In this document: piece after piece, positions 1 to 15,993 of the stretch
How the letters are laid out: each line of letters begins with the position of its first letter
Numbering within the stretch: the stretch's first letter is position 1
Virus record (IMG/VR): IMGVR_UViG_3300042479_000659
From: an uncultured virus (IMG/VR IMGVR_UViG_3300042479_000659)
Lineage: Duplodnaviria > Heunggongvirae > Uroviricota > Caudoviricetes
DNA: 20,000 nucleotides
Strand: one strand, 5' to 3'
The notes under the pieces: model-generated
What the model saw: the letters and a program-made list of their open reading frames with translations, nothing else
Databases searched by the model: none
Told to the model about the DNA's origin: nothing
Made by a program: the position numbers and the translations under genes

Positions 1-100
1 CGCATTGCCAGCGGCCTTTGGGTTCGAAGACTACCACCCGTAGCTGTCACACTACTTCTCATCGTCAGGGTCTGACTATCCGGAGACACCCGGAACGTTC
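1..100 (-). ncRNA. Candidate structured non-coding RNA starting right after the tRNA-Tyr CCA (runs off the window edge)
   Basis: Minus strand has consecutive hairpins UCCGGG-UGUC-UCCGGA, GUCAG-ACC-CUGAC and GUAG-UGUGACAG-CUAC; loops UGUC/GACA are complementary; GC-rich, no tRNA cloverleaf. Confidence 0.45.
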
Positions 101-184
101 TGGTGGAGATGATAGGGATCGAACCTATTGTGACTAAGTCGGAGGATTTACAGTCCCCTGCCATACCATTACGGCGGCATCTCC
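101..184 (-). tRNA. tRNA-Tyr(GTA)
   Basis: Acceptor GGAGATG/CATCTCC-A-CCA, anticodon loop CT-GTA-AA, extended variable arm, GGTTCGATCCC T-arm. Confidence 0.95.
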
Positions 185-189
185 ATGTG

Positions 190-264
190 TGGTACTCGAT
201 AGCGGAGTCGAACCGCTCTTGCCTGGATGAAAACCAGATGTCCTAACCGATAGACGAATCGAGC
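190..264 (-). tRNA. tRNA-Glu(TTC)
   Basis: Acceptor GCTCGAT/ATCGAGT-A-CCA, anticodon arm TCTGG-TT-TTC-AT-CCAGG, GGTTCGACTCC T-arm. Confidence 0.95.
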
Positions 265-272
265 AAAAAGAG

Positions 273-337
273 GAGAGCCACGGTTGCAGGACCTAGTGTC
301 TCGTTGCCGAGAGAAGTGTCCAGGCGATGCGGCTCTC
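273..337 (-). ncRNA. Candidate 65-nt structured RNA between tRNA-Asp and tRNA-Glu
   Basis: 9-bp closing stem GAGAGCCGC/GUGGCUCUC, inner CCUGG/CUAGG stem, apical UCUCG-GCAA-CGAGA GNRA hairpin; G-U pairs work only on the minus strand. Confidence 0.55.
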
Positions 338-343
338 AAAACT

Positions 344-418
344 TGGCGGTCTGTGGGGGAATCGAACCCCCGTAAGTGGATAGACAATCCACAGTAATAA
401 CCTCTATACGAACAGACC
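344..418 (-). tRNA. tRNA-Asp(GTC)
   Basis: Acceptor GGTCTGT/ACAGACC-G-CCA, anticodon arm GTGGA-TT-GTC-TA-TCCAC, GGTTCGATTCC T-arm. Confidence 0.93.
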
Positions 419-426
419 AAAATCTA

Positions 427-641
427 CTATTTTAAAACATACTAAAGGAACCATTGTGCATCTATGTCTACCTATAGGACCGTCTCCTATAGACCTGCAC
501 GGTCATTACTGCCTACATGCTCCGCCGCTTTTCTGGACATTTCTGCCCGGTTTCATAGACCTAGCTTGAGCGTGGGCGGCCCCACAGTCCTCGCCTTAGA
601 TCCCTAACGGTGTAGGTAACCTTTAATACGTTTTAAAATAG
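427..641 (-). ncRNA. Candidate ~215-nt multi-helix structured RNA closed by a 22-bp stem
   Basis: Arms 620-641 and 427-448 pair over 22 bp with two G-U pairs (minus strand); internal helices CCUACA/UGUAGG, GUGGG-GCCG-CCCAC, GGGCA-GAAA-UGUCC, GUGCA/UGCAC, CUAUAGGA/UCCUAUAG. Confidence 0.65.
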
Positions 642-671
642 CAACCCTTGCAGGTTACCAAAAACAACAAC

Positions 672-705
672 TTTTTAAAGAACGTCTAGTTAATTTCCTA
701 ACTAG
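672..705 (-). promoter_or_regulatory. boxB-like hairpin followed by boxA-like antitermination signal
   Basis: Minus strand CTAGTTAG-GAAA-TTAACTAG (686-705) then GTTCTTTAAAAA (672-683), resembling rrn boxA TGCTCTTTAACA, directly downstream of the 711-739 promoter. Confidence 0.65.
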
Positions 706-710
706 TCTCT

Positions 711-739
711 AGTATAACACAATGGCTATATCTAGTCAA
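711..739 (-). promoter_or_regulatory. sigma70-type promoter (downstream member of a tandem pair)
   Basis: TTGACT-17 bp-TATACT with TGn extended -10. Confidence 0.8.
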
Positions 740-754
740 TTTGTTTTGCAAAGT

Positions 755-876
755 CCCTACACTGTGTAGGGTTATTTGCAGATCCAGCTAATTTCTTAAC
801 TTGTTTCTATTATAGCAAAACGGCATTAAATGGTCAAGTTAGTACTTTAGTATACCCTACAGCAAGTAGGGTTATT
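755..876. repeat. Two copies of palindrome CCCTAC-N5-GTAGGG-TTATT, 100 bp apart
   Basis: 755-771 and 855-871, lying 15 and 17 bp upstream of the -35 boxes of the two tandem promoters. Confidence 0.8.
809..837 (-). promoter_or_regulatory. sigma70-type promoter (upstream member of a tandem pair)
   Basis: TTGACC-17 bp-TATAAT with TGn extended -10. Confidence 0.85.
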
Positions 877-878
877 AT

Positions 879-952
879 TGGCGTACCTCCAGGGACTCGA
901 ACCCCGACGAACAGTTTTGGAGACTGTGATGCTGCCATTACATTAGAGATAC
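879..952 (-). tRNA. tRNA-Trp(CCA)
   Basis: Acceptor GTATCTC/GAGGTAC-G-CCA, anticodon arm ACAGT-CT-CCA-AA-ACTGT. Confidence 0.93.
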
Positions 953-958
953 ATTATT

Positions 959-1032
959 TGGTAGCCTGTAGAGGTAACGATCCTCTGTCGCTCGATTATC
1001 AGTCGAGTGCTCTACCATTGAGCTAACGGGCT
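959..1032 (-). tRNA. tRNA-Ile(GAT), atypical T-loop
   Basis: Acceptor AGCCCGT/ACAGGCT-A-CCA (one C-A mismatch), anticodon arm CTCGA-CT-GAT-AA-TCGAG, T-arm AGAGG-ATCGTTA-CCTCT. Confidence 0.9.
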
Positions 1033-1039
1033 AAATTTT

Positions 1040-1114
1040 TGGCGGGTCCTGCAGGAATCGAACCCACACCACTTGGTTCGAAGCCAAGCATGATATCCAT
1101 TTCACCAAGGACCC
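1040..1114 (-). tRNA. tRNA-Arg(TCG)
   Basis: Acceptor GGGTCCT/AGGACCC-G-CCA, anticodon arm CTTGG-CT-TCG-AA-CCAAG. Confidence 0.93.
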
Positions 1115-1118
1115 TGAT

Positions 1119-1194
1119 TGGTAGGAACGATTGGACTCGAACCAACCACACCCAGATTTTCAGTCTGGTGCTCTACCTGATGAGCTACGTTCCC
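1119..1194 (-). tRNA. tRNA-Phe(GAA)
   Basis: Acceptor GGGAACG/CGTTCCT-A-CCA, anticodon arm CCAGA-CT-GAA-AA-TCTGG. Confidence 0.95.
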
Positions 1195-1200
1195 ACGACG

Positions 1201-1290
1201 TGGCGGTGTGACTCGGACTCGAACCGAGAACCCGGATTACGCCGAGCGACGGTTTAGCAAACCGCTCCGATACCATTACGGGACCACACC
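1201..1290 (-). tRNA. tRNA-Ser(GCT)
   Basis: Acceptor GGTGTGG/TCACACC-G-CCA, anticodon loop TT-GCT-AA, long variable arm, G73 discriminator. Confidence 0.93.
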
Positions 1291-1890
1291 GTTGATCATT
1301 TTCAAATACTCTTGTTGTAATTCTTCCCAATTTAAAATTATGTCTTTGTACCGATACGGACTTGGTTGATGTACATGACCAACTTGCAATTTGTTGTAGC
1401 GTAAATCTAATTTATCAGCAACAAATTTTGCACCTTTATCTATTAGATCTTCATAATAGATGGTTACAACTTTTTTATAACCGGACAAGATTAAATTACT
1501 TGCCCACATCAAATTATTCACTAACTCAATAAATTCTGCTTTATCAAAAACCAGTGGCTCTACAATCTTGTTGCTGTAATCTTTACCACTCCATTCATCA
1601 ACTAGTAGAGCTACGCACATACTCATCAGTTGGGCAAATATATCTCGTCTGAGACTCAGTATTAATGTCACAGTTGATTTATCTAAATCTCTAATTTCTA
1701 TGAGATTATGAAGATGTATCACTGTGTTTTGATCTTTAATACCCTGCTGATATTTTTCTTTGTTGGCTGGGAGCCATATTGCATATGCGTCAGCTAATCC
1801 CCCTTTAGTGCCTATAGGTCCGGTCAACATTTCTAATATGATGTGACTTCCGGTTCTTCCAGGAGAATAAATTACATATATGTTATTCAT
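1276..1890 (-). CDS. Stf0-like sulfotransferase family protein (204 aa)
   Basis: N-terminal SPGRTGS PAPS-binding-like loop, LRRDIFAQLMS, IYYEDL, C-terminal ILNWEEL; start moved to ATG 1890 because the longer ORF start lies inside tRNA-Ser(TGA). Confidence 0.7.
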   Translation of the reverse strand: MNNIYVIYSPGRTGSHIILEMLTGPIGTKGGLADAYAIWLPANKEKYQQGIKDQNTVIHLHNLIEIRDLDKSTVTLILSLRRDIFAQLMSMCVALLVDEWSGKDYSNKIVEPLVFDKAEFIELVNNLMWASNLILSGYKKVVTIYYEDLIDKGAKFVADKLDLRYNKLQVGHVHQPSPYRYKDIILNWEELQQEYLKMINGVVP

Positions 1891-1915
1891 TGTTGTATTT
1901 AAAGATTGATATTGT

Positions 1916-2007
1916 TGGCGGAAGACGGAGGAGTCGAACCCCATCCCTGTTAAGAGAACCTGGTTTTCAAGGCCAGTCGCAGGACCAACCCCGCTGCATC
2001 ATCTTCC
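1916..2007 (-). tRNA. tRNA-Ser(TGA) with 8/4 (tRNA-Sec-like) cloverleaf
   Basis: 8-bp acceptor GGAAGATG/CGTCTTCC-G-CCA, 4-bp T-stem GGGG/CCTC around TTCGACT, anticodon loop CT-TGA-AA, long variable arm. Confidence 0.85.
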
Positions 2008-2016
2008 TAAAATATG

Positions 2017-2778
2017 TTAAAGATTTTTAAAAACTTTTTTTATAATTGCACTGCGATCCAGTTTGGAACTGGCACCCAATACAATGACTGCGTACTGTTG
2101 TTTGTTGTGTTCTACCAGCATGGCCACACACCATCCAGCAAGATTGGTAAATCCAGTCTTGCTCACGTCTACACGGTCAAACTCTGTCAACAGTGGACGG
2201 GATGTGTGAATGAGATTCACAGAGCTGCCACGAGTTCGATCCGACTTTGTTAACTGTACAGTAGACTGTCCGCTGGCTTCTTGTATAAACCAATAGCTGG
2301 CAGCAATCTGTACCATTTCTACTAGATCCCGTGCAGTGGTCACATTGAACACACCTAGCCCCGAAGGATCTACAAATTTAGTATCTTGAAGATTCCACAT
2401 CCGGGCATGTCGATTCATTTCAGACACAAAGGCAGATCGGCCACCAGGATAGTTCTGTGCAATGGTTTCGGCTGCTCCGTTGTCACTGCTAACCAGCATG
2501 GCCAGCAACAACTGTTCTCTGGTGTATCTGCCAGGCGGCAATCGACTACCAGTGTTTTTTCTCAGCACCAACTGCTGTTGAAGATCTCTGTTGTGATCCA
2601 ATGCAACCATGGCAGTCATCAACTTGGTCACACTGGCCATTGATCTGATTTGATCACTATTTTGGCTCAGTTCCGTGCGCTGTGCATTGATGTTGTAGAC
2701 CAACACAGTGGGCTCACGTGCGTGGGCCGCCGCATTGGATAAGACTGTACAAAAAAACACTGTGGCAAATAGTTTCAT
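2017..2778 (-). CDS. Peptidase S11 D-alanyl-D-alanine carboxy/endopeptidase (PBP7/PbpG-like), secreted
   Basis: Signal peptide ending AHA; SxxK (ASVTK), SxN (SDN) and KTG motifs all intact. Confidence 0.9.
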   Translation of the reverse strand: MKLFATVFFCTVLSNAAAHAREPTVLVYNINAQRTELSQNSDQIRSMASVTKLMTAMVALDHNRDLQQQLVLRKNTGSRLPPGRYTREQLLLAMLVSSDNGAAETIAQNYPGGRSAFVSEMNRHARMWNLQDTKFVDPSGLGVFNVTTARDLVEMVQIAASYWFIQEASGQSTVQLTKSDRTRGSSVNLIHTSRPLLTEFDRVDVSKTGFTNLAGWCVAMLVEHNKQQYAVIVLGASSKLDRSAIIKKVFKNL

Positions 2779-2796
2779 ATCTTTATTTTGTAAAAT

Positions 2797-2871
2797 TGGA
2801 ACACAGGACAGGACTCAAACCTGCATGATACGGATTTGCAATCCGTTGCGTAATCATTCCGCCACCTGTGC
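2797..2871 (-). tRNA. tRNA-Cys(GCA)
   Basis: Acceptor GCACAGG/CCTGTGT-T-CCA (U73, a Cys identity element), anticodon arm ACGGA-TT-GCA-AA-TCCGT. Confidence 0.92.
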
Positions 2872-2902
2872 ATATACGTCAAACACACTGTTTCCAATGT
2901 GT

Positions 2903-2958
2903 GTATTAAAGCACTCTAAAATACTTAGGCTGCCTGTTCTTAAAGAATGCTTTAATAC
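2903..2958 (-). repeat. 15-bp inverted repeat upstream of tRNA-Cys
   Basis: GTATTAAAGCATTCT ... AGAGTGCTTTAATAC, one G-U on the minus strand. Confidence 0.75.
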
Positions 2959-3022
2959 GAACTAATTTTTAGTCCCACAAGAGGGATTCCATCCTAGTCG
3001 CCGCCCGTTTGTGCTTGTTTAT

Positions 3023-3052
3023 AGTGTAGCACAGGACCTCGTTTCCTGTCAA
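3023..3052 (-). promoter_or_regulatory. Possible sigma70 promoter (alternatively part of an RNA hairpin)
   Basis: TTGACA-18 bp-TACACT with TGn; the same bases form hairpin ACAGGA-N7-TCCTGT. Confidence 0.4.
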
Positions 3053-3063
3053 CACTTTAGGAT

Positions 3064-3225
3064 CTATGCTGGAAGTTGATTCTTGACTCGCATGCGAGTT
3101 TCGAGCATCAACCTAGCACGTTCCAACTTTTCCCGAATCAACTTTTCACGTTGTTCCGGTGTCAGCGTGTGCTCTGTTGTGTACTTTACTTCACGCATTC
3201 GTTGTTTTAAATCTAATTTCTTCAT
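3064..3225 (-). CDS. Small basic helical protein, 53 aa (MKKLDLKQRMREVKYTTEHTLTPEQREKLIREKLERARLMLETRMRVKNQLPA); not in the ORF track
   Basis: ATG 3225 preceded by AAAAGGAAAA SD-like sequence, TAG stop at 3064-3066. Confidence 0.65.
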   Translation of the reverse strand: MKKLDLKQRMREVKYTTEHTLTPEQREKLIREKLERARLMLETRMRVKNQLPA

Positions 3226-3237
3226 TTTTCCTTTTCT

Positions 3238-3274
3238 AAAAACAAAAAACCCTAGGGTTTTTAATCCTAGGGTC
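3238..3274 (-). terminator. Rho-independent terminator (attenuator candidate)
   Basis: ACCCTAGG/CCTAGGGT stem (3266-3273 with 3249-3256) followed by TTTTTGTTTTT. Confidence 0.85.
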
Positions 3275-3300
3275 CTTGGAGTTTGTGTGTAAACTTTTAT

Positions 3301-3441
3301 TTACGACATGGTCTCCTGGACCCTGGTACCCTCTGGTGTGCGATCATATGACATGCTATTAATTGCCGACCAAATAGAGGGCGCGAAGCCGGCCTGTTTG
3401 GCTGAACAATTTGACATAGAATGTAATACGTTTGTTTGCAT
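3301..3441 (-). CDS. Putative 46-aa leader peptide (MQTNVLHSMSNCSAKQAGFAPSIWSAINSMSYDRTPEGTRVQETMS)
   Basis: ATG 3441 to TAA 3301, between a consensus promoter and a terminator; its last codons overlap an antiterminator strand; A-rich 5' UTR with no strong SD. Confidence 0.55.
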   Translation of the reverse strand: MQTNVLHSMSNCSAKQAGFAPSIWSAINSMSYDRTPEGTRVQETMS

Positions 3442-3489
3442 TTTTGTTTCTTTAAATTTACATACACCTTTTTATTGGCGCATGTGTGT

Positions 3490-3518
3490 ATTGTATAGGT
3501 TTATTTATACAAGGTCAA
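3490..3518 (-). promoter_or_regulatory. sigma70 promoter with an embedded T4-type late promoter motif
   Basis: TTGACC-17 bp-TACAAT; TATAAATA at 3502-3509 within the spacer. Confidence 0.8.
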
Positions 3519-3576
3519 CCACTTGGTTGCTCAAAATACAAATTTTTTTCAAGATATTTGCCTTAATAAGTACACT

Positions 3577-4671
3577 ATGCAACAGGCATTCAACGGAGTA
3601 CACAGCGGCGAGATTTGGAATCAAAGCCAATGTCTAGTACACGAATACAACATCAATAACACAATATATCAAATACTACGCGATACCGGGTTTAGTGTAA
3701 CTGACAATCCACGGATATGGAAAAAATCAAACCAAACAGTGATCGTCTGCCTGGTTGACGATATACGAAGTTGTAGTACAGACTATCACAGTGACTTGCC
3801 CTACTTGTTTGATGCCAATACCACAGTCATAACCGACAACTATATCACTTGTCCCACACAGTACCGTGTGGTAAGATTGCCCGCTAGTTTCTTGGGAATC
3901 TATCACTATGTGCCCAGCAATTACACATGGCGGCCAGAACGAGATTTTTCTTTTGCAGTAAATCGAATTGACCAACGCAGATTTATGCTGATGTTGGAAA
4001 TCGGACTCAGAGTACATTTGCACAAAGGCCATGTAAATTTCAACTGTTATCGTCCAGGAAATTCCGTAGTGTCAGACCCTGCTCTTATTTCCACAACCCG
4101 GGCATTAGAACATTGGAATGACCATTGGAACCAGACCAGCAACGAAGACAAATCAAAATATCAAAAAAGTTATGAATTGCTAACAGCACAAATGCCTGTG
4201 CGCAATTATGAAATAGAACATGATGAAATTTTTAATCGGTCATATGTTAACATTGTGGCCGAAACCTACAGCAGTGACAACAACATATCACTGAGTGAAA
4301 AAATATTCAGAGCATTAGTAACACCTGCTCCGTGGACCGTGTCGTCGGGTCGATACACAGTGGCCTATTTAACTAGCTTGGGATTTGATACTGTGTCAGA
4401 TCTAATAGACCACAACCATTACGATAGACTAATAGAAGTGCAAGAGAAGCAACGCATATTTGTATGGAAAAGCCTTGAAACTATTAAATCATTGAAGTCT
4501 CAAGATCTAGCTCTGCTACAAGACAGATGTCAACGTGCTGCCACACACAATCAAACTGTATTGGCCGTAATGGCTGCTCGGTGGCCCAATGACTTTGCTC
4601 AGTGGATCAGCATACTTACACAAACGCTAACCAATCCACAGGCGATCGGGCCCATTCAGTATCAAATTTAA
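3577..4671 (+). CDS. Glycosyltransferase-like protein (GT10-like C-terminal motif)
   Basis: SYVNIVAETY...LSEKIFRAL..P..V.....LTSLGFD signature; ATG 3577 follows AATAAGTA. Confidence 0.55.
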   Translation: MQQAFNGVHSGEIWNQSQCLVHEYNINNTIYQILRDTGFSVTDNPRIWKKSNQTVIVCLVDDIRSCSTDYHSDLPYLFDANTTVITDNYITCPTQYRVVRLPASFLGIYHYVPSNYTWRPERDFSFAVNRIDQRRFMLMLEIGLRVHLHKGHVNFNCYRPGNSVVSDPALISTTRALEHWNDHWNQTSNEDKSKYQKSYELLTAQMPVRNYEIEHDEIFNRSYVNIVAETYSSDNNISLSEKIFRALVTPAPWTVSSGRYTVAYLTSLGFDTVSDLIDHNHYDRLIEVQEKQRIFVWKSLETIKSLKSQDLALLQDRCQRAATHNQTVLAVMAARWPNDFAQWISILTQTLTNPQAIGPIQYQI

Positions 4672-5269
4672 AATTCTTAACTTGTGCGTCAAGATAATTT
4701 TGCATCATTGTCAGTCTGAGATCACTACTGTGCAGATGGTGGCCGGTGCTTTGATCGCCAATTTCTAACCACTCAAGTCCGTAGTCAGCACCAAACTGTG
4801 TGGCAGTAACTAATATTGTTGTGTTGTTGGCATCAAATTGGGTCAGTCTTATCAAGTCTTGATCGTTGTTAATTTGCTGCCAAGTGTTGTATTGTACAGC
4901 GTTCGATGCTGTGCATGTTATAACAACACTGACTGTGGATATTTTGGGATTTAGTTGCAGTGTCATCAGTCGTGTGTCGCCACAATCAACTACGTACTGT
5001 TCATGTTGTTGGTGTATCAACAAGGGCTTTCGTATGGGCTCTTTGTGTAAATTTTGATAAAAATAGTTGACCCGCAGTAATTTTGCAATTTCGTTTTGCA
5101 GTCCCGCCGGCCAAGACAACAAATCAGTGCCATACAAATCTAATGCTTGATTTACCACAGAACAAGATCCTTCGAGTGTCTGTACCGGAGTTAGTTGTGC
5201 AATGGGAAATGCTGGATGATAAAACATACAGTATGTTGATCCAAGTGCTGTTTTTATTATATCTGTCAT
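4616..5269 (-). CDS. Hypothetical protein, possible ParB/sulfiredoxin-like domain (217 aa)
   Basis: IRKPLLI...YVVDCGDTRL resembles the ParB-N P-hhh...hhDGxxR pattern; start reassigned to ATG 5269. Confidence 0.45.
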   Translation of the reverse strand: MTDIIKTALGSTYCMFYHPAFPIAQLTPVQTLEGSCSVVNQALDLYGTDLLSWPAGLQNEIAKLLRVNYFYQNLHKEPIRKPLLIHQQHEQYVVDCGDTRLMTLQLNPKISTVSVVITCTASNAVQYNTWQQINNDQDLIRLTQFDANNTTILVTATQFGADYGLEWLEIGDQSTGHHLHSSDLRLTMMQNYLDAQVKNFKFDTEWARSPVDWLAFV

Positions 5270-5274
5270 GTTAA

Positions 5275-5290
5275 TATTTACTTGTAAATA
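5275..5290. promoter_or_regulatory. Back-to-back GTAAATA late-promoter-like motifs
   Basis: Palindrome TATTTAC-TT-GTAAATA in the 27-bp gap between divergent ATGs. Confidence 0.5.
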
Positions 5291-5296
5291 CAGGCC

Positions 5297-6229
5297 ATGA
5301 TTGAAATACACGGTCCTACTTACACCTACTCTGGCGAGATTCTGTCCAGCCCCGAAATTATTTTGGTTCGTGACCACCACTATAGTCCCGACGAACACTG
5401 TTATCATGTGGAAAAATTATTGGAAAACAGTTCATGTGATCCGCAACAGCATCTGTTGGTATTTGATCATGTGACAGTACAAGAAGGATTAACTGAATAT
5501 CCGTATGTTTGTTTACCTATGTTTTTGGCCCGAGAAAATAAAGAATTTATACATCAAGACATACAACCAGATTGGAGCCGTAAAACAGCTACATTCAACT
5601 TTATGATCAACAAACCCAGATCCAACAGACGTCGATTGTTGGCATTAATCGAACAACATAAATTAACCAATTATTGTCATTCTCTTGCGTGGAAAACAAA
5701 TGACATTAATACCATACCTGTAACCAACTATGTCTTTGGCCCCGAAGTTGCGATGGACCAAGGAGTTCGTAACGGTTCATTTAAAAATGCACACACCTAT
5801 AATAAATTGTTGCAGAAAACAGTGTTTGAACCCACTTGTATTTCTTTAATAACTGAACCTGCGTATTATGAAAAAGAAACCATAGTAACAGAAAAGACAC
5901 TGATGGCATTATACGCAGGAACTATTCCAATGTGGGTCGGCGGTTGGCGCATAGCAGATTATATGGCCAGCATGGGATTTGATGTGTTTGATGATGTTGT
6001 TGATCACAGTTACCAAACAGAGTTGGATCCTGGTCGCAGATGTGATCTTGCAGTGGAACTTAATCTTGGATTGCTGACCAACTTTGATCTGGCACACCGC
6101 AGTCTTAATTTAGTACGTCTACAGCACAATTATGATCTGTTGCAACAAAATGTGTTTTTAAAAGATGTGTTAGAAAAAGCCCGACAGCGACCAGAGTTGC
6201 AGTCAATAGTTGCGCAGGAACTTTTCTAA
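5297..6229 (+). CDS. Glycosyltransferase-like protein (GT10-like C-terminal motif), distant paralog of 3577..4671
   Basis: ISLITEP...VTEKTLMAL....PMWVG.....MASMGFDVFDDVVDHSY signature. Confidence 0.6.
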   Translation: MIEIHGPTYTYSGEILSSPEIILVRDHHYSPDEHCYHVEKLLENSSCDPQQHLLVFDHVTVQEGLTEYPYVCLPMFLARENKEFIHQDIQPDWSRKTATFNFMINKPRSNRRRLLALIEQHKLTNYCHSLAWKTNDINTIPVTNYVFGPEVAMDQGVRNGSFKNAHTYNKLLQKTVFEPTCISLITEPAYYEKETIVTEKTLMALYAGTIPMWVGGWRIADYMASMGFDVFDDVVDHSYQTELDPGRRCDLAVELNLGLLTNFDLAHRSLNLVRLQHNYDLLQQNVFLKDVLEKARQRPELQSIVAQELF

Positions 6230-7469: not shown

Positions 7470-7903
7470 AGTGTCACTTGTTCTTTGTTCTTAAACGGGC
7501 CTTGGTAAGGATAGCGTTGTAGTGCAATCAGTTTGGGATCCTGAATGATCTTCCAATTTCGTCCACGCTTGATAGAATACCATCCTGCGGCAAACCAACT
7601 TTTGCTTTTGGCAGTCTTGGTATAAATTGGCAAGTGATGCACCACGTCCCACACAGGATTATAACAACGACCTGCTACCGGATACCCGTGTACCACGGTA
7701 TTGTCAGGTTTGGATGTTGTTTCTTCTTTGGCAAATACAATGTTTGATTCTTTGGCTGCAAGTTTGATTGTTTTAAATTGCTTTACTTGATTGTTGATAC
7801 GAACTTGATATCCGCCATTCCATGCTTCGATGTTGCCAACTTTGCGATCATCTTCTTGTAAGATCCAAAACTGTTTGTCTGCTACGACTTTAGCTACTAA
7901 CAT
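7466..7903 (-). CDS. Hypothetical phage protein
   Basis: 145-aa ORF with AGGAG SD, coupled to its neighbours. Confidence 0.8.
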   Translation of the reverse strand: MLVAKVVADKQFWILQEDDRKVGNIEAWNGGYQVRINNQVKQFKTIKLAAKESNIVFAKEETTSKPDNTVVHGYPVAGRCYNPVWDVVHHLPIYTKTAKSKSWFAAGWYSIKRGRNWKIIQDPKLIALQRYPYQGPFKNKEQVTL

Positions 7904-8897
7904 TTAAAACTCCTTTGTATGTTTCATTTAACCAACGGCCAAACCCTTCAGCATTTTCACTACACCGTACTAGATCATACTTGCCGCAAAATTGCATAAA
8001 CCTTACGCCCACCTGTCCGATATCCTTGTGCGAGATCTGTTCAATGATAGCAAGATCCACTGTGTCTTTTACTGCCTGTGGTTGATGTGTAAGATCAATC
8101 AACTGACGATTGCGTTCATAGTCATCCAACACACGGTGTTCTTCACCGTTATGGTCGGTCCATCTTTGCAACATCATGTTGTTCCAGTTGTAGCCTTTGG
8201 TTGTACGGTCTGCAAATGCTTCTTGTAGACCCACCTTGTTCTTGGTGCCTTTTGTTCGCACACCAGGAAATGCACTAAACACATTGTCGCTGGTATCGCC
8301 ACGCATACATTTTTCGAACAACAACCATGCAGGATCAGGAATCTGTTTGGGTTCCTTGGTCTTCTTATCAACTACAGGTCGACCTTTGGCATCATAGATG
8401 CCTTCGGTGGTGATAAGTTCGTCTGTGATACCATTGTATTGTTTTACGTTTGCGGCCAGCAACTGCACAAAATCTGTGTCGCTACTGATCACAATGTGTT
8501 CGTCTTGGGGATGTAGAGCAATCCAGCGGGCAATAATGTCATCGCCCTCTGCAGTGGGACATCGAATCACACTGCAATTGGTTCTTTCTGACAAGTATTT
8601 AGTCAAATTATCATACGTTTCCCAGAACATTTTATCTTCTTCTGCTTCTGTTTCTGTAAGCGCGGCACGGGCTACAGCACGGTTTGCTTTGTAGGGTTTG
8701 TAGTGATCTTTGCGCCAGCTACGTCCCTCCAGTGCAAAAACAACATGGTCTGCTTCAAAACGTTTAACAACCTTGTTGGCACTCATCAGCGTTGTGTGCA
8801 GTGCTACTCCAACTTTTTCCCATGGATCTGACGCACGAAATGCAGTGTGCCTTGCACGAAAAAACATATTAGCTGTGTCAATTAACACATAACGCAT
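7890..8897 (-). CDS. rnh: T4 RNase H-like 5'-3' exonuclease (FEN/PIN fold)
   Basis: LIDTAN, SWRK..Y..YKANR, EGDDII, SSDTDFVQL, GDTSDNV motifs; start reassigned to MRYVLID at 8897. Confidence 0.9.
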   Translation of the reverse strand: MRYVLIDTANMFFRARHTAFRASDPWEKVGVALHTTLMSANKVVKRFEADHVVFALEGRSWRKDHYKPYKANRAVARAALTETEAEEDKMFWETYDNLTKYLSERTNCSVIRCPTAEGDDIIARWIALHPQDEHIVISSDTDFVQLLAANVKQYNGITDELITTEGIYDAKGRPVVDKKTKEPKQIPDPAWLLFEKCMRGDTSDNVFSAFPGVRTKGTKNKVGLQEAFADRTTKGYNWNNMMLQRWTDHNGEEHRVLDDYERNRQLIDLTHQPQAVKDTVDLAIIEQISHKDIGQVGVRFMQFCGKYDLVRCSENAEGFGRWLNETYKGVLNVSS

Positions 8898-10682: not shown

Positions 10683-11783
10683 TTAGAATAAATCCACAGT
10701 TTCCCAAGGCAAATAGTCTTTGCCAAAGTGTCCGTAGTTGGTTGTGCTACTGTAGATAGGACGGAAGAGATCAAACCGTTCAATAATGCCTCGAGGTGTT
10801 AGGTCAACGTTGTCTTGCACCCACTTGGTCAATTCACGACTTTGTGGTTTGTGGTCTGTTTCAACGTAAAAGCTCATGGGCTGTGCCATGCCAATGGCAT
10901 AACTGATCTGCACAGTTGCCCAATCTGCTCGACCACTGGCCACAATGTTCTTGGCAATCCAGCGTGTCAAGTAGGCAGCACTGCGATCAACCTTAGTGGG
11001 ATCTTTTCCCGAGAAAGCCCCGCCACCATGAGGACTATACCCGCCATACGTGTCAACAATAATCTTGCGGCCAGTAAGCCCAGTATCACCATCGGGGCCA
11101 CCAACGACAAATCTACCAGTGGGGTTAATATAAAATTCAGTTTGATTATCAATATAATTTTTAGGAAGAATATTACGGATAATCGATTCTACTTTGTTGC
11201 GGAGTAACGCTGTTTCAATTTCATCGCTATGTTGTGTAGAACAAACAACTTTAGCGATGCGTTTGGGTGTGCCAGCATCATTGTACTCAAATGTCACTTG
11301 GCTCTTGGCATCTGGGCCTAGCCATTCAATGCCCAGTTCCTTGCGTTGTCGTGCAAGTTCTTCCACAATACGATGGCTCCAATAAATGGCACTGGGCATG
11401 TGTGTATCGGTTTCGTTACAAGCATATCCAAACATCAGTCCCTGATCTCCGGCACCAAATGTGTCTGTGCCCAGTGCAATGTCTACACTTTGCCCATGTA
11501 ACAAATTGGTGATCTCAACAGTGCGCCAATCAAACCCAGACTGTTCGTATCCAACGTCTTTGATAACTCTGCGTACTGCTGATTCAACTTCTTCGGCATG
11601 TAAGATGCCTTTGTATTCGCCAGCAACCACAACACGATTGGTAGTCACTAGTGTTTCACAAGCACAGCGTAGTGCAGGATTTTCCTTGGACATTACCAAG
11701 TCCAGAACAGCATCGCTAATAGCATCTGCAATTTTATCCGGATGTCCTTCGGATACACTTTCACTTGTAAATAGATAACTCAT
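10683..11783 (-). CDS. metK: S-adenosylmethionine synthetase
   Basis: FTSESVSEGHPDK, GAGDQG, GLTGRKIIVDTYGG, HGGGAFSGKD.TKVDRS; start at MSYLF (AAGGAA SD). Confidence 0.98.
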   Translation of the reverse strand: MSYLFTSESVSEGHPDKIADAISDAVLDLVMSKENPALRCACETLVTTNRVVVAGEYKGILHAEEVESAVRRVIKDVGYEQSGFDWRTVEITNLLHGQSVDIALGTDTFGAGDQGLMFGYACNETDTHMPSAIYWSHRIVEELARQRKELGIEWLGPDAKSQVTFEYNDAGTPKRIAKVVCSTQHSDEIETALLRNKVESIIRNILPKNYIDNQTEFYINPTGRFVVGGPDGDTGLTGRKIIVDTYGGYSPHGGGAFSGKDPTKVDRSAAYLTRWIAKNIVASGRADWATVQISYAIGMAQPMSFYVETDHKPQSRELTKWVQDNVDLTPRGIIERFDLFRPIYSSTTNYGHFGKDYLPWETVDLF

Positions 11784-11793
11784 TAATTTCCTT

Positions 11794-12648
11794 TTATTTT
11801 CCCCATCCATTGCCCCAAAGATCCACATGCAATCTTGGAGTATAGTAGTATCCACGCACAAGTGCCCAGTCTGCAACATTCACACGATTCTCTGCATATG
11901 GAGCAACAACACCACCTTGTGGCATAACATATACCACACCTTCAAATCCTGCGGCACGATAAGCAGCCACAGCACGATCTACTTCTTCAAAGTGTACTTC
12001 GCTGTCAATCACAAACTTAAGATACACAGTACCAAAGTTTTGATAGTCTGCAACAATCTCGGGTTTAATTGCCTCTGCCCATGCTTCTCCACTGGCACTG
12101 AGTTTGGGACTGACAGAGAATGTAAGTTCATTGTGTCCAGCAAGCCATGTGTTAAGATATTCTCTAAACTTGGGCTGTAACTTTTGAGTACCATTGGTCT
12201 CAAATGTAACATTCTTAATGCCACGCATATCGTCATGATCAAACAAGTCTTGATATGTACGTTGCCATCCCAGCAATGGCTCACCACCTGTGATCACAAG
12301 ATGTGTGTCATTGCCTGTGCGATTGGTCCAACGACGGTCAGGAATCAAGTCTAGCATTTTGTTTACTAGTTCATCAATCTCATATGTAGGGCTGAGTTCT
12401 TTGAAGTCAGGATGCCAACTTGCATAGCTGTCGCAACCAGTGTTTACAAGCGGCAGCTCTTCAAATGTTTTGTACAAGTGTACGTTCTTGGCAACTTCAT
12501 CTGCTTCGGTGCTTTTCTCACCAGGCCGGCACCCGAAACCTGCACAGGTAAAGTTACATCCAAATGTGCGTAAAAACACACTGGGTACACCAATAAAGCG
12601 ACCTTCGCCTTGTGCCGAATAGAATAGTTCTGATACTTTTAATTTCAT
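11794..12648 (-). CDS. queE: 7-carboxy-7-deazaguanine synthase (radical SAM)
   Basis: ELFYSAQGEG, FLRTFGCNFTC...GCDS, TGGEP, ETNGT, SVSPKL, PRLHV.LW. Confidence 0.9.
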   Translation of the reverse strand: MKLKVSELFYSAQGEGRFIGVPSVFLRTFGCNFTCAGFGCRPGEKSTEADEVAKNVHLYKTFEELPLVNTGCDSYASWHPDFKELSPTYEIDELVNKMLDLIPDRRWTNRTGNDTHLVITGGEPLLGWQRTYQDLFDHDDMRGIKNVTFETNGTQKLQPKFREYLNTWLAGHNELTFSVSPKLSASGEAWAEAIKPEIVADYQNFGTVYLKFVIDSEVHFEEVDRAVAAYRAAGFEGVVYVMPQGGVVAPYAENRVNVADWALVRGYYYTPRLHVDLWGNGWGK

Positions 12649-12653
12649 GTACT

Positions 12654-12683
12654 ATTATACAATAATTGTTTATGACTTGTCAA
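12654..12683 (-). promoter_or_regulatory. sigma70 promoter for queE-metK, probably giving a leaderless mRNA
   Basis: TTGACA-18 bp-TATAAT, then only 5 nt before the queE ATG. Confidence 0.75.
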
Positions 12684-13581
12684 CTAAATTTTTAATAATT
12701 CGTTTGACACCTTGCTCAAATGACATTGGTTTATAATCGGACATGACCGATCTCAATTTGTCAATGTTGGGTCTACGTGTTGCAGTACTGCCGGCCTTGC
12801 CAGGTGAGGTAGTCCACTCAGGGTCAGTGTGACCCAGTTCTTCGGCAATGACTTTTACTGCGTCCCGAATGGTAATTTCTCTATCATTGCCTATGTTGAA
12901 CAGTTCACGTGTTTGTGTTTTGGCGCAGAAAATCGTGGCTCGAACAGCATCTTCTACATGACAAAAACTGCGTGTTTCTTCTGGACCAACAACTTCAAAT
13001 ATACCATTTTGAATCTTGGCAATTTGATCTGCTAAGAAATGTCCGGCCTTGCTGTTGTCGCCGTACACGTTAAAGTACCGTATCATCACATAGGGCAACG
13101 GTGAATTGGTCAAGTAGTTTTCTGCACAGATCTTGGGCAAACGATAACTCCATCTGGCATTGTGAATATTGTTGATTGTGATATCTGTATGCTCAGCAAC
13201 AGGACTAACCGGATCGTCACTTACTACTTCACTGGAACTAGCGTACACTAGTTTTTTTAACTGTTTATTCATGCCGGCAAATTCAAACACATTGAAGTCA
13301 CCCACCATGTTGTTCCATAACACTTGGTTAGGACGCTCGTAAAAGTTCTTGGTTCCGTTGATTGCACCATAGTGATAGATGTAATCAAAGTCCACAGGCA
13401 AGTCTGCGTAGGCCACATCGCCAGCAGTCAAGTCTACATCAATAAACTTGTCACAGGGCGGTATGGTTGAACTACGACTATGGTTGTCCATGGCCCATAC
13501 TACATTTTTTTTATCGTGTTTGAGTTGGCGGCAGATTTCTGTGCCTAATAAGCCGCTGGCACCGGTTACTAATATTTTCAT
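12670..13581 (-). CDS. NAD-dependent NDP-sugar epimerase/dehydratase (extended SDR)
   Basis: TGASGLLG, ASSSEV, YRLPK (YxxxK), RYFNVYG, TRSFCHVED. Confidence 0.92.
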   Translation of the reverse strand: MKILVTGASGLLGTEICRQLKHDKKNVVWAMDNHSRSSTIPPCDKFIDVDLTAGDVAYADLPVDFDYIYHYGAINGTKNFYERPNQVLWNNMVGDFNVFEFAGMNKQLKKLVYASSSEVVSDDPVSPVAEHTDITINNIHNARWSYRLPKICAENYLTNSPLPYVMIRYFNVYGDNSKAGHFLADQIAKIQNGIFEVVGPEETRSFCHVEDAVRATIFCAKTQTRELFNIGNDREITIRDAVKVIAEELGHTDPEWTTSPGKAGSTATRRPNIDKLRSVMSDYKPMSFEQGVKRIIKNLVDKS

Positions 13582-14351: not shown

Positions 14352-14764
14352 TTGTCATCCTCTGGAATGATCGAATCCACTCTGTACGTGTCAGTTTCGT
14401 AGTCTTCTCCGCCACGTGGGCCTTCGGCAAAGGCAATGAATGTACAGCCATCCACAGTGGTTTTCATTGCGTGAATCTCATTGGGCGGACTGATAATAAA
14501 GTCACCTTTTCTGGCCAAGAATTCGGTAGGTGTTCCATCACTGTCTACAGGTTTGCTGTAATACACCATGCTGCCTGTGAGCACATAGGTATATTGAGTA
14601 GTGTGTTTGTGATAGTGATTACCACGTACTGCCCCGGCTGTGTTGGTAATCAAACAGGCGTGATTGACCCCGGCCTTGTAAAAGATATCTGTAATTGTGC
14701 CGCGATCGTCGCTGAACGTTCCTAGCCCTGTTTCGTTGTTGTTGTAAATGTTGTATTGTTTCAT
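14348..14764 (-). CDS. Cupin, NDP-sugar isomerase/epimerase-like (FdtA/RmlC-like)
   Basis: DDRG, RGNHYH....Y.YVL.G, P.E.HA motifs. Confidence 0.75.
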   Translation of the reverse strand: MKQYNIYNNNETGLGTFSDDRGTITDIFYKAGVNHACLITNTAGAVRGNHYHKHTTQYTYVLTGSMVYYSKPVDSDGTPTEFLARKGDFIISPPNEIHAMKTTVDGCTFIAFAEGPRGGEDYETDTYRVDSIIPEDDK

Positions 14765-15993
14765 TGTGATATAAACCTTGTGTTGGGATTGATGCGTAAT
14801 AATGCTCGCTTAAGACCTTCACCAATGTTCCAACTTAAAATTAAAGCGTATGGATTGGGATACTTTGCGAATTCATTATCATCTAAGATTGGTATACGGC
14901 TAAGAGGAGTATACTTACCTTGCTTGTGTTCACTAGCATCGGTAATACAATGCAGGTGTGTTTTATTTAGGCCATGCCACGCAAGCCATGTGTTTGCCTT
15001 GGCGGCAGCACCCACGCCAATGATCACAGCGTCAGGTTCGTCTTGTAGTATTTGATAAAATTTAGCCAACCATGCGTTGCGTTGTTGTTCAAACTTCTTT
15101 TGAAGACCCACGTAAAAGTCTGGATCAAATAACCCAGCAGTGGTTTCTGTGTGGATAGCATTCGACACCTTTTCTGGCACTCCAGCACCTGTGGCTTTCC
15201 TTGCTACCACACGCAAACTGCCACCATGATAATCAACCACATCAAAGTCCGCAATTTCTAATCCAGCCTCTGCCAACAAGTTGTGCAGGCTCTTGACAGT
15301 AAAGTAACTGATGTGTTCATGATACACCATGTCAGTGAAGCGGCCGCTACGAACCATTTCCAGCCAGTATGGAACTTCAAACACAAATACACCATCTTTG
15401 TCCAGTAGAAAACTTACACCATGTGCAAACTCCACAGGCTCATTGGCATGATTGAATACATTGTTGGCAATAACAACTGCGGCACGACCATATTTGGGAA
15501 CAAGATCATATGCAACATTAGGATGAAATACTGCCTGTACTGCATCAACTCCTTGTGATTTGGCCAACTCACACATTGCACTGCTGGAATCAATGCCCAA
15601 CGTGGCGGTTGATTCATTGTTGAATTGTCGAATTAGATATGCATCGTTGCTGCCAATTTCCACCACAAGACCCGCAGTGTTGTATTTTGATTTGATAGTT
15701 GTGGCAAACTCGTCCCAGTGATCTCTTGCTGTCTTTGAGTTGCTGGATGTGTAACTGTAACTGTACAAGTTGTATCTTGCTTCGGCATTGCTGACATACC
15801 CCAATTGCAACATGCCTGAGTTGGGATTTAAATGTACTTGCAATGGAAACACTGGCTCACTGAGATGCAACTGATCCCGGGACACAAACGTGTCTGCGTA
15901 GGCGTGTTGTCCAAAGTCCAATACCTTGGTCACTGATTCTGTAGTGATTAAACATGTGTCCAACTGTCTGCTGTGTGTTATGTCTGTTGTCAT
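14761..15993 (-). CDS. SAM-dependent NDP-hexose C-methyltransferase
   Basis: VEIGSND, ANNVFNH, VFEVPY, YHEH.SYF, HGGSLR, GAAAKANT, KQGKYTP, LSWN motifs of the TylC3/TcaB9-type family. Confidence 0.88.
   Translation of the reverse strand: MTTDITHSRQLDTCLITTESVTKVLDFGQHAYADTFVSRDQLHLSEPVFPLQVHLNPNSGMLQLGYVSNAEARYNLYSYSYTSSNSKTARDHWDEFATTIKSKYNTAGLVVEIGSNDAYLIRQFNNESTATLGIDSSSAMCELAKSQGVDAVQAVFHPNVAYDLVPKYGRAAVVIANNVFNHANEPVEFAHGVSFLLDKDGVFVFEVPYWLEMVRSGRFTDMVYHEHISYFTVKSLHNLLAEAGLEIADFDVVDYHGGSLRVVARKATGAGVPEKVSNAIHTETTAGLFDPDFYVGLQKKFEQQRNAWLAKFYQILQDEPDAVIIGVGAAAKANTWLAWHGLNKTHLHCITDASEHKQGKYTPLSRIPILDDNEFAKYPNPYALILSWNIGEGLKRALLRINPNTRFISQ

Follow-up and report, generated by a model that had tools for sequence, protein, structure and literature searches.

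In the amino-acid operon attenuators of enterobacteria (trpL, hisL, leuL, thrL, pheL, ilv), a promoter-proximal open reading frame (ORF) is followed by a terminator with a competing antiterminator, the position of the ribosome decides which of the two folds forms, and read-through is favoured when the ribosome stalls upstream. In ilv and thr, multivalent leaders sample several amino acids. The T-box, in turn, is a terminator/antiterminator switch that reports the status of a tRNA. Here we describe an element resembling both in its building blocks, located at positions 3518 to 3238 on the minus strand of the uncultured Caudoviricetes record IMGVR_UViG_3300042479_000659 (IMG/VR); the whole stretch analysed, 20,000 nucleotides (nt) long, is referred to as the window, and all positions are those of the window. 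The element comprises a promoter, a short leader ORF, an antiterminator and a terminator, with tRNA genes following on the same strand. We consider it likely to be a ribosome-dependent (leader-peptide) transcription attenuator heading the tRNA island of a jumbo phage, which would be read through when the leader is decoded slowly.

Why phages carry tRNA genes has been debated for decades. Available portions of recent papers tie phage tRNAs to escape from tRNA-cleaving host defences (PMC10264068, PMC11555353, PMC12409363), and within such portions of the literature the control of phage tRNA genes is barely addressed. A literature search over the same kind of partial texts found no published leader-peptide attenuator on phage tRNA genes, and in the accessible parts of two papers on phage tRNAs (PMC12482277, PMC10264068) the terms attenuator, leader, terminator and promoter are absent. 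Outside amino-acid biosynthesis, the accessible parts of the respective reports describe short ORFs at which slow translation, regardless of its cause, refolds the RNA and activates the genes behind them, as in bmrB-bmrCD, vmlR, msrD, toiL-topAI and the upstream ORF of whiB7 (PMC4191407, PMC9226507, 10.1101/2021.11.29.470318, PMC12121999, PMC10274678), as well as leaderless polycysteine short ORFs of mycobacteria that act as attenuators (bioRxiv 10.1101/834739).

The leader and its two competing folds

The leader region contains the following features, given in the direction of transcription (base pairs, bp; free energy, dG):

3518-3490, minus strand: leader promoter of the sigma-70 type, TTGACC-17-TACAAT, 10/12 matches in a pattern scan (-35 box 3518-3513, -10 box 3495-3490)
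3482-3463, minus strand: predicted hairpin at the 5' end of the transcript, 6-bp stem, dG -6.8
3441-3301, minus strand: leader ORF of 46 codons with an ATG start and a TAA stop (3303-3301)
3430-3345, minus strand: long irregular hairpin in the ORF body, predicted by single-sequence folding
3326-3266, minus strand: antiterminator, a three-tier hairpin made up of P1 (3324-3318 with 3275-3269, plus CC/GG), P1b (3316-3313 with 3281-3278) and an apical hairpin (3308-3286) that holds the stop codon
3276-3238, minus strand: intrinsic terminator; about 10 stem pairs (3276-3266 with 3256-3246) enclose a 9-nt loop and are followed by U6GU5, which ends at 3238

A first-pass annotation of the window, made from its letters alone, had named a consensus promoter at 3490-3518, a 46-codon ORF encoding all 20 amino acids at 3441-3301 and an intrinsic terminator behind this ORF. 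All three are present, the terminator with both its stem and its U tract. The terminator is absent from the list of a simple scanner because its 9-nt loop exceeds the loop limit of 8 applied there. The 5' untranslated region (UTR) of the window leader measures about 42 nt, and the terminated leader RNA would be about 245 nt long.

According to the same annotation, the last codons of the ORF are complementary over 13 bp (CC, AGGGUCC and GGAG; 3326-3313 with 3281-3266) to a segment that includes the 5' arm of the terminator. This complementarity is paired in the minimum free energy (MFE) fold of the whole leader RNA (approximately 3490-3226; dG -76.5 kcal/mol, z score -6.25, none of 200 dinucleotide shuffles folding as well), and the terminator is not formed in that fold. 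The terminator 5' arm is common to the 3' strand of the antiterminator, and for the 12 nt at 3277-3266 upstream and downstream pairing are alternatives that never coexist, which agrees with the mutual exclusivity originally proposed. In single-sequence folds the antiterminator attains -18 to -30 kcal/mol, compared with -13 to -17 kcal/mol for the terminator; since the antiterminator is the more stable structure and is also transcribed first, a leader RNA left alone should permit read-through. No upstream segment competing for the antiterminator 5' strand, in the manner of a 1:2 protector pairing, appears in the leader folds. The trp/his-type geometry suggested in the first pass is thus retained for the ORF, the terminator and the mutually exclusive antiterminator, but not for the protector: this is a two-state switch, and for this reason absence of translation should result in read-through.

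To mimic a ribosome, 31 nt of the window leader were held single-stranded. Placing the modelled A site anywhere within codons 2-35 yields the antiterminator fold (9 of the 12 shared nucleotides paired upstream), and placing it at codons 37-46 or at the stop codon yields the terminator (9-10 shared nucleotides paired downstream); codon 36 is intermediate. In this folding model the structures therefore flip at codon 36/37, as expected if a ribosome that reaches the end of the ORF masks the antiterminator strand.

The ORF body between the ATG and P1 is itself unusually structured (mean z score -2.74 over 92 leaders, 71% of them below -2). In the members inspected, the hairpin base pairs the start-codon region with the codons of a conserved D-R-T motif and does not overlap P1; such pairing may explain why these codons are conserved. 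RNAalifold did not recover this hairpin: from a MAFFT alignment of whole leaders it returned the terminator as the sole structure, and from a codon alignment nothing. It is a matter of speculation from the folds that the ORF-body hairpin times the test performed by the leader, whether by acting as a pause hairpin or by occluding the start site once the first ribosome has passed. The strong folding of both the leader and its ORF body would also suit a different explanation, namely that the terminated RNA of about 245 nt is itself the product, a trans-acting structured and perhaps dual-function small RNA for which the ORF is secondary. A precedent is the attenuator-derived small RNA rnTrpL of Sinorhizobium, as described in the accessible part of PMC6614838. 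Such a role is compatible with attenuation and leaves the amino-acid statistics presented below unexplained; as the explanation of the locus we regard it as very improbable.

Two collections of related loci were used for comparison. For the pattern set, viral contigs were scanned with the two P1 strands, which gave at least 119 stretches and at least 73 distinct family loci in which the helix is fixed by the search itself. The unbiased set derives from a scan anchored only on 15 bases of the ORF (the codons of a D-R-T-P-E run), with no reference to the helix; of its 110 distinct stretches, 52 carry a GGGTTTT tail within 135 nt and represent the family, the rest being unrelated coding matches. 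The ORF, the antiterminator, the terminator and downstream same-strand tRNAs are kept together in more than 100 viral contigs. Among close relatives, whose neighbouring proteins are 83-97% identical to those of the window, the promoter, the ORF, both helices and the terminator are retained at 89.5-98.7% nucleotide identity. Of 96 family loci, 91 have a promoter site with at least 10/12 matches ahead of the leader, and in the relative L032 both arms of the 5' hairpin are altered together. In 23 of the 96 loci the -10 box ends 6-11 nt before the ATG, the other 5' UTRs being 37-66 nt long; judging from this spacing, the 23 leaders probably give rise to leaderless mRNAs.

Related phages were expected to preserve a short ORF whose stop codon is narrowly placed relative to the antiterminator, and this is what we found. 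In the pattern set, 72 of 73 loci have an ATG-initiated ORF of 40-67 codons that stops between the two P1 strands, its end lying 10-29 nt downstream of where the P1 5' strand begins and 22-32 nt upstream of the 3' strand; the sole exception, L122, has an ORF of only 14 codons. In the unbiased set such an ORF is present in 49 of 52 rows, and the remaining three fail the P1 search expression. The reading phase of the ORF relative to the RNA motif is 0 in most pattern-set loci, 2 in twelve and 1 in three. As all three phases occur, the RNA motif is kept independently of the residues it encodes, while the ORF is kept to end inside the hairpin.

Covariation, likewise anticipated for both helices, was seen in the antiterminator (P1 and P1b) and in the terminator. 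In a MAFFT alignment of the unbiased set, the seven P1 pairs are 98.1% paired, and none of 500 column shuffles reached the observed pairing or covariation score; sliding the P1 partner by 1-3 columns lowers pairing to 14-65%. The outermost P1 pair is A-U in 26 rows, G-C in 22 and G-U in 3, and a second pair shows one U-A and one U-G. The last nucleotide of the shared GGACCCY segment has an upstream partner in the antiterminator and a downstream partner in the terminator. Written as upstream partner, shared nucleotide and downstream partner, the combinations at this position are (G,C,G) in 22 rows, (A,U,G) in 17, (A,U,A) in 9, (G,U,G) in 2 and (C,U,A) in 1, with one row unparsed; wherever the shared position is C, both partners are G (22/22). 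One terminator pair occurs as C-G (19), U-G (12) and U-A (9). For P1b, all four pairs change on both sides and 87.9% of cells are paired in a model-fitted alignment of 96 distinct rows, an alignment that leans to structure and takes about half its rows from the helix-based scan, and was used for P1b only.

Leader composition and the downstream tRNA blocks

The composition of the leader peptides was examined in 92 of 97 distinct leaders, those of 40-55 amino acids (aa), the five outside this range being omitted; L208, L216 and L271, which fail the P1 search expression, were left out of the peptide counts. All 20 amino acids are present in 70 of the 92 leaders (76%) and at least 19 in 86, with a mean of 19.68. 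The chance of finding all 20 is 4.2% in random windows of the phage's own proteins, 3.5% in random draws from phage composition and 3.4% in random draws from the composition of the family itself, with means of about 17.3. The property is not restricted to near-identical peptides: 25 of 36 representatives below 50% pairwise identity hold all 20. As a control, none of 68 distinct proteins encoded by ORF2, the gene behind the terminator, in the same loci does so (median 53 aa, mean 16.4 amino acids). Cysteine occurs in 86 of the 92 leaders, exactly once in 81, and is scattered over 27 alignment columns, the commonest of which holds 17; histidine occurs in all 92, over 23 columns. Serine is in excess (12.6%). 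If only those codons are considered at which an A-site stall leaves P1 free (median 36 codons), at least 19 amino acids are still represented in 67% of leaders, compared with 3.2% expected. There is no run of regulatory codons for a single amino acid; instead, 19-20 amino acids are packed into about 36 codons. These counts argue that holding all 20 amino acids is a selected property of the family, beyond this one peptide.

Among pattern-set loci with at least 1400 nt of downstream sequence, 37 of 38 have same-strand tRNAs past the terminator, L055 being the exception, and the first tRNA lies at a median distance of 424 nt from the terminator (range 208-1199). Between the two, no sigma-70-like site was detected in 26 of 42 loci, a site scoring 9/12 in 5 and one scoring 10-12 in 11; the lineage of the window belongs to the latter, and the scan would miss phage-specific promoters.

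We then compared the amino acids in the unmasked part of each leader with the isotypes of its tRNA block, counted as far as the following leader, in records with at least 10 kb downstream. For the phage of the window we used G001, a near-identical virus record (region identity 98.7-100%) that provides the wider context and contains 25 same-strand tRNAs covering all 20 isotypes within about 14 kb of the leader, plus a permuted transfer-messenger RNA (tmRNA). In G001, as in G002 and G005, the leader samples 19 amino acids and the block supplies 20, the missing one sitting in the tail of the leader; in G004 the numbers are 18 and 20, and both missing amino acids are again found in the tail. The record G007 contains two same-strand switches 7 kb apart (L275:755-922 and 7781-7969), each heading its own tRNA block. 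Its second leader and block agree completely (15 = 15), both lacking exactly C, D, E, L and Y, for which tRNAs are encoded behind the first leader. In G012, a relative of the second leader of G007, leader and block also agree (17 = 17), both lacking exactly D, E and Y; compared with G007, Leu and Cys are present in its leader and in its block alike. G008 and G013 are off by two each, with Val present in both leader and block of G013 and in neither of G008, and G006 is off by one. Summed over 12 pairs, among them one (G015) that was first compared by hand, the symmetric difference is 26, compared with 52.7 after permutation, and none of 100000 permutations was as low. With one pair per related group (8 pairs) it is 17 versus 37.0, with 24 of 40320 permutations as low. 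The first leader of G007 is rich in Leu and Ser, and its block opens with three tRNA-Leu genes and one tRNA-Ser gene.

Could the leader simply be an ordinary small-protein gene, with a hairpin that stabilises the 3' end of the mRNA or tunes a leaky terminator, and with the tRNAs as mere neighbours? In 240 leader pairs that are 80-99% identical, and not independent of each other, differences are distributed 28/27/45% over codon positions 1, 2 and 3, and single-base codon changes comprise 921 synonymous and 903 non-synonymous ones. Sequence comparison of this kind indicates that the leader ORF is translated, and some purifying selection on the peptide is what a small-protein gene would show. The fixed positions (Trp at one column in 91 of 92 leaders, and the D-R-T-P-E run) fit such a gene as well, and promoter-like sites within the array of the window permit expression of the tRNAs independently of it. 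However, the single cysteine roaming over 27 columns, the 76% of leaders with all 20 amino acids, the composition that tracks the isotypes encoded downstream and the RNA motif kept in all three reading phases are left unexplained; moreover, the hairpin competes with the terminator rather than adding to it, and the leader peptide matches no PHROG or Pfam family. We therefore consider a plain small-protein gene unlikely.

Genes behind the terminator and the source phage

The genes and sites behind the terminator in the window are as follows:

3225-3064, minus strand: ORF2, 53 aa, with a good ribosome-binding site of its own; first gene past the terminator
3052-3023, minus strand: promoter-like site between ORF2 and tRNA-Cys, TTGACA-18-TACACT, 10/12, with TG
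3022-2872, minus strand: structured spacer upstream of tRNA-Cys, 151 nt, dG -43.6, containing two hairpins (about 15 bp and 8 bp)
2871-2797, minus strand: tRNA-Cys (GCA), the first tRNA downstream
2778-2017, minus strand: Peptidase_S11 gene
1944-1276, minus strand: ORF of 222 aa
1290-101, minus strand: eight tRNAs (Ser, Phe, Arg, Ile, Trp, Asp, Glu, Tyr), the array continuing past the start of the window
837-809 and 739-711, minus strand: further promoter-like sites inside the array, from the pattern scan

The array had initially been placed straight after the terminator. Same-strand tRNAs do follow, but the main array is separated from the terminator by ORF2, a promoter-like site, tRNA-Cys and two protein genes. 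The downstream promoters that the first-pass annotation had raised as a caveat were all confirmed as promoter-like sites, and the one at 3052-3023 is retained in L222 and L234, close relatives of the window. Judging by its predicted fold, the structured spacer may represent a site of processing or an additional regulatory RNA. A sub-threshold tRNA-Sec match at 2007-1920 on the minus strand (36.6 bits, gathering score 47) overlaps the start of the 222-aa ORF and has no ARAGORN call. Elsewhere on the minus strand of the window, the proteins at 10683-11879, 12670-13581 and 14761-15993 are S-adenosylmethionine synthetase-like, nucleotide-sugar epimerase-like and a weak tRNA methyltransferase match, respectively.

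Of 77 family loci, 50 have an ORF2-like gene behind the terminator and 27 lack one, so ORF2 is frequent yet dispensable, whereas the tRNAs are constant. Its relatives are 50-58 aa long with invariant Lys32 and Arg35, and the predicted structure is a helical hairpin (predicted local distance difference test, pLDDT, 92); we found no Pfam family, no informative Atlas neighbour and no fold match in PDB for ORF2. Its position directly behind the terminator in 50 of 77 loci and its conserved helical hairpin would suit a genuine switch that is set by a trans-acting factor, be it the ORF2 protein itself (autoregulation), a tRNA or another phage or host protein, and the nearly invariant P1 sequence could be a protein-binding site. 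On the other hand, 27 of 77 loci keep the switch without ORF2, no T-box or other Rfam family matches the switch at an expectation value (E) of up to 1, the apical hairpin varies freely in sequence, and neither the location of the ORF stop inside the hairpin nor the leader composition is explained. Control by a trans factor is in our view quite unlikely.

The window belongs to an uncultured jumbo phage whose relatives include complete records of 347-364 kb. No relative was found among 50,697 public phage records, using blastn with the window region and a typical family member and tblastn with one window protein; a second window protein matched deposited phages only as S-adenosylmethionine synthetase, in unrelated phages. 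A covariance model of the switch detected one copy per record in five large records, of which three are complete genomes. Ten additional records also contain the element, G007 twice and the others once each.

A permuted, two-piece tmRNA predicted by ARAGORN ends the tRNA island in four related records: L273:9067-9465 (G001), L274:9322-9811, L275:11461-11866 and L280:8396-8894. In three of the four, the tag peptides are unusually long, with 27-29 residues. Permuted tmRNAs are typical of alphaproteobacteria, some betaproteobacteria and cyanobacteria, and the tmRNA type may be a hint to the host. Three related records also encode a tRNA-Ser with the unusual anticodon ACT (L273:8909-8998, L274:8766-8855, L275:4506-4593). 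In metatranscriptomes, 24 runs contain small shares of the window.

Proposed mechanism and comparison with known systems

The conservation of the element, its covariation, the position of the stop codon, the amino-acid sets and the match between leaders and blocks all favour ribosome-mediated attenuation, as put forward in the first-pass annotation. From these we infer the role of the ribosome, the direction of the switch and its physiological trigger. According to our proposal, a strong host-type promoter would produce a short RNA opening with a test ORF of 46 codons, and the three-tier antiterminator hairpin contains the final ten of these codons together with the stop. The first ribosome and RNA polymerase would then engage in a race over about 140 nt. 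If the ribosome arrives at about codon 37 or later before the 3' arm of the terminator emerges, it would hold the 5' strand of the antiterminator and transcription would terminate; if the ribosome lags behind, the antiterminator would form first and the polymerase would continue into ORF2, which would be the first regulated gene in the window (53 aa), and the tRNA genes. The ribosome could fall behind by stalling at one of the first ~35 codons, where 19-20 amino acids are sampled, or by failing to initiate. As the leader samples the isotypes that its own block supplies, the circuit would amount to negative feedback on the phage tRNA supply, provided that the tRNAs made relieve the stall, and it would double as a sensor of tRNA loss or translation stress.

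Several observations weigh against this proposal. The ribosome-binding site of the leader ORF is weak compared with that of ORF2. In 62 of 92 leaders Glu is encoded within the zone masked by the ribosome; its codon, part of the conserved run, lies at the margin of that zone, which is why Glu is the residue usually missing from the unmasked part. A pure sampler would have no need of the fixed Trp or of the D-R-T-P-E run, and here RNA pairing may explain the fixed peptide positions. Five of the seven P1 pairs scarcely vary, so that covariation in P1 rests on one or two pairs, and counts across loci refer to related sequences and are thus non-independent events. In the lineage of the window, a 10/12 promoter-like site before tRNA-Cys and two more in the array mean that the tRNAs need not depend on read-through. 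The match between leader and block is poor in three cases (four differences in G003, six for the first leader of G007 and six for G015) and is confined to amino acids. When strict wobble rules were applied, the leaders showed no enrichment of codons readable by the phage anticodons: block tRNAs read 256 of 345 leader codons and 30834 of 44609 codons in nearby long-ORF controls, and for the phage of the window 23 of 34 leader codons compared with 80% in control ORFs. Finally, metatranscriptome contigs from four runs mostly cover the conserved terminator part of relatives and are then unlike the window, which makes transcript ends, strand and read-through unreadable.

Taking ribosome-dependent attenuation as the basis, we lean slightly towards a wider picture in which the element is a tRNA homeostat of jumbo phages. 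Test ORFs would co-evolve with their tRNA blocks, each listing the amino acids of its block's tRNAs (here one of each of the 20), and the race between ribosome and polymerase would set transcription of the block. Loss of host tRNAs through anticodon nucleases, host shut-off or starvation would be answered in this way, and the ORF-body hairpin would time the single test round or restrict the leader to it. If this is true, the element represents a conserved sensor linking the speed of decoding with the transcription of tRNA genes through a concrete, testable mechanism, classical attenuation is extended from amino-acid supply to tRNA supply, and a leader peptide has been selected to contain one of everything. 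Being a compact part of about 250 nt, it could also serve as a reporter of translation stress.

Compared with known systems, the element works like a leader-peptide attenuator but departs from it in three respects: runs of a single codon, protector pairing and biosynthetic targets. Where the amino-acid operon attenuators have a run of regulatory codons, the phage element has about one codon for each of 19-20 amino acids; it lacks the 1:2 protector pairing, so that an untranslated leader should lead to read-through and not to termination; and its ORF runs through the 5' strand of the antiterminator and stops in the apical hairpin. It is also phage-encoded, and the genes it would regulate are tRNAs and a small protein instead of biosynthetic enzymes. 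In line with these differences, positions 1-6000 of the window gave no Rfam match to the Trp, His, Leu, Thr or Phe leader families but only tRNA-clan matches (E up to 1). T-box riboswitches bind uncharged tRNA directly and need no ORF, and no T-box model of Rfam, with its specifier loop and T-box sequence, matched within these 6000 positions at E up to 1. The mycobacterial polycysteine ORFs, as far as the accessible part of their description goes, are alike in the leaderlessness that is probable for 23 of 96 family loci, but consist of runs of a single amino acid and sense cysteine, and the leader of the window has a 5' UTR. The bmrB, vmlR, msrD, toiL and whiB7 ORFs, by the accessible parts of the reports, answer antibiotics or particular kinds of starvation and control bacterial resistance or stress genes, whereas the phage element would control tRNA genes, with a leader composition that is tuned to the very block under its control.

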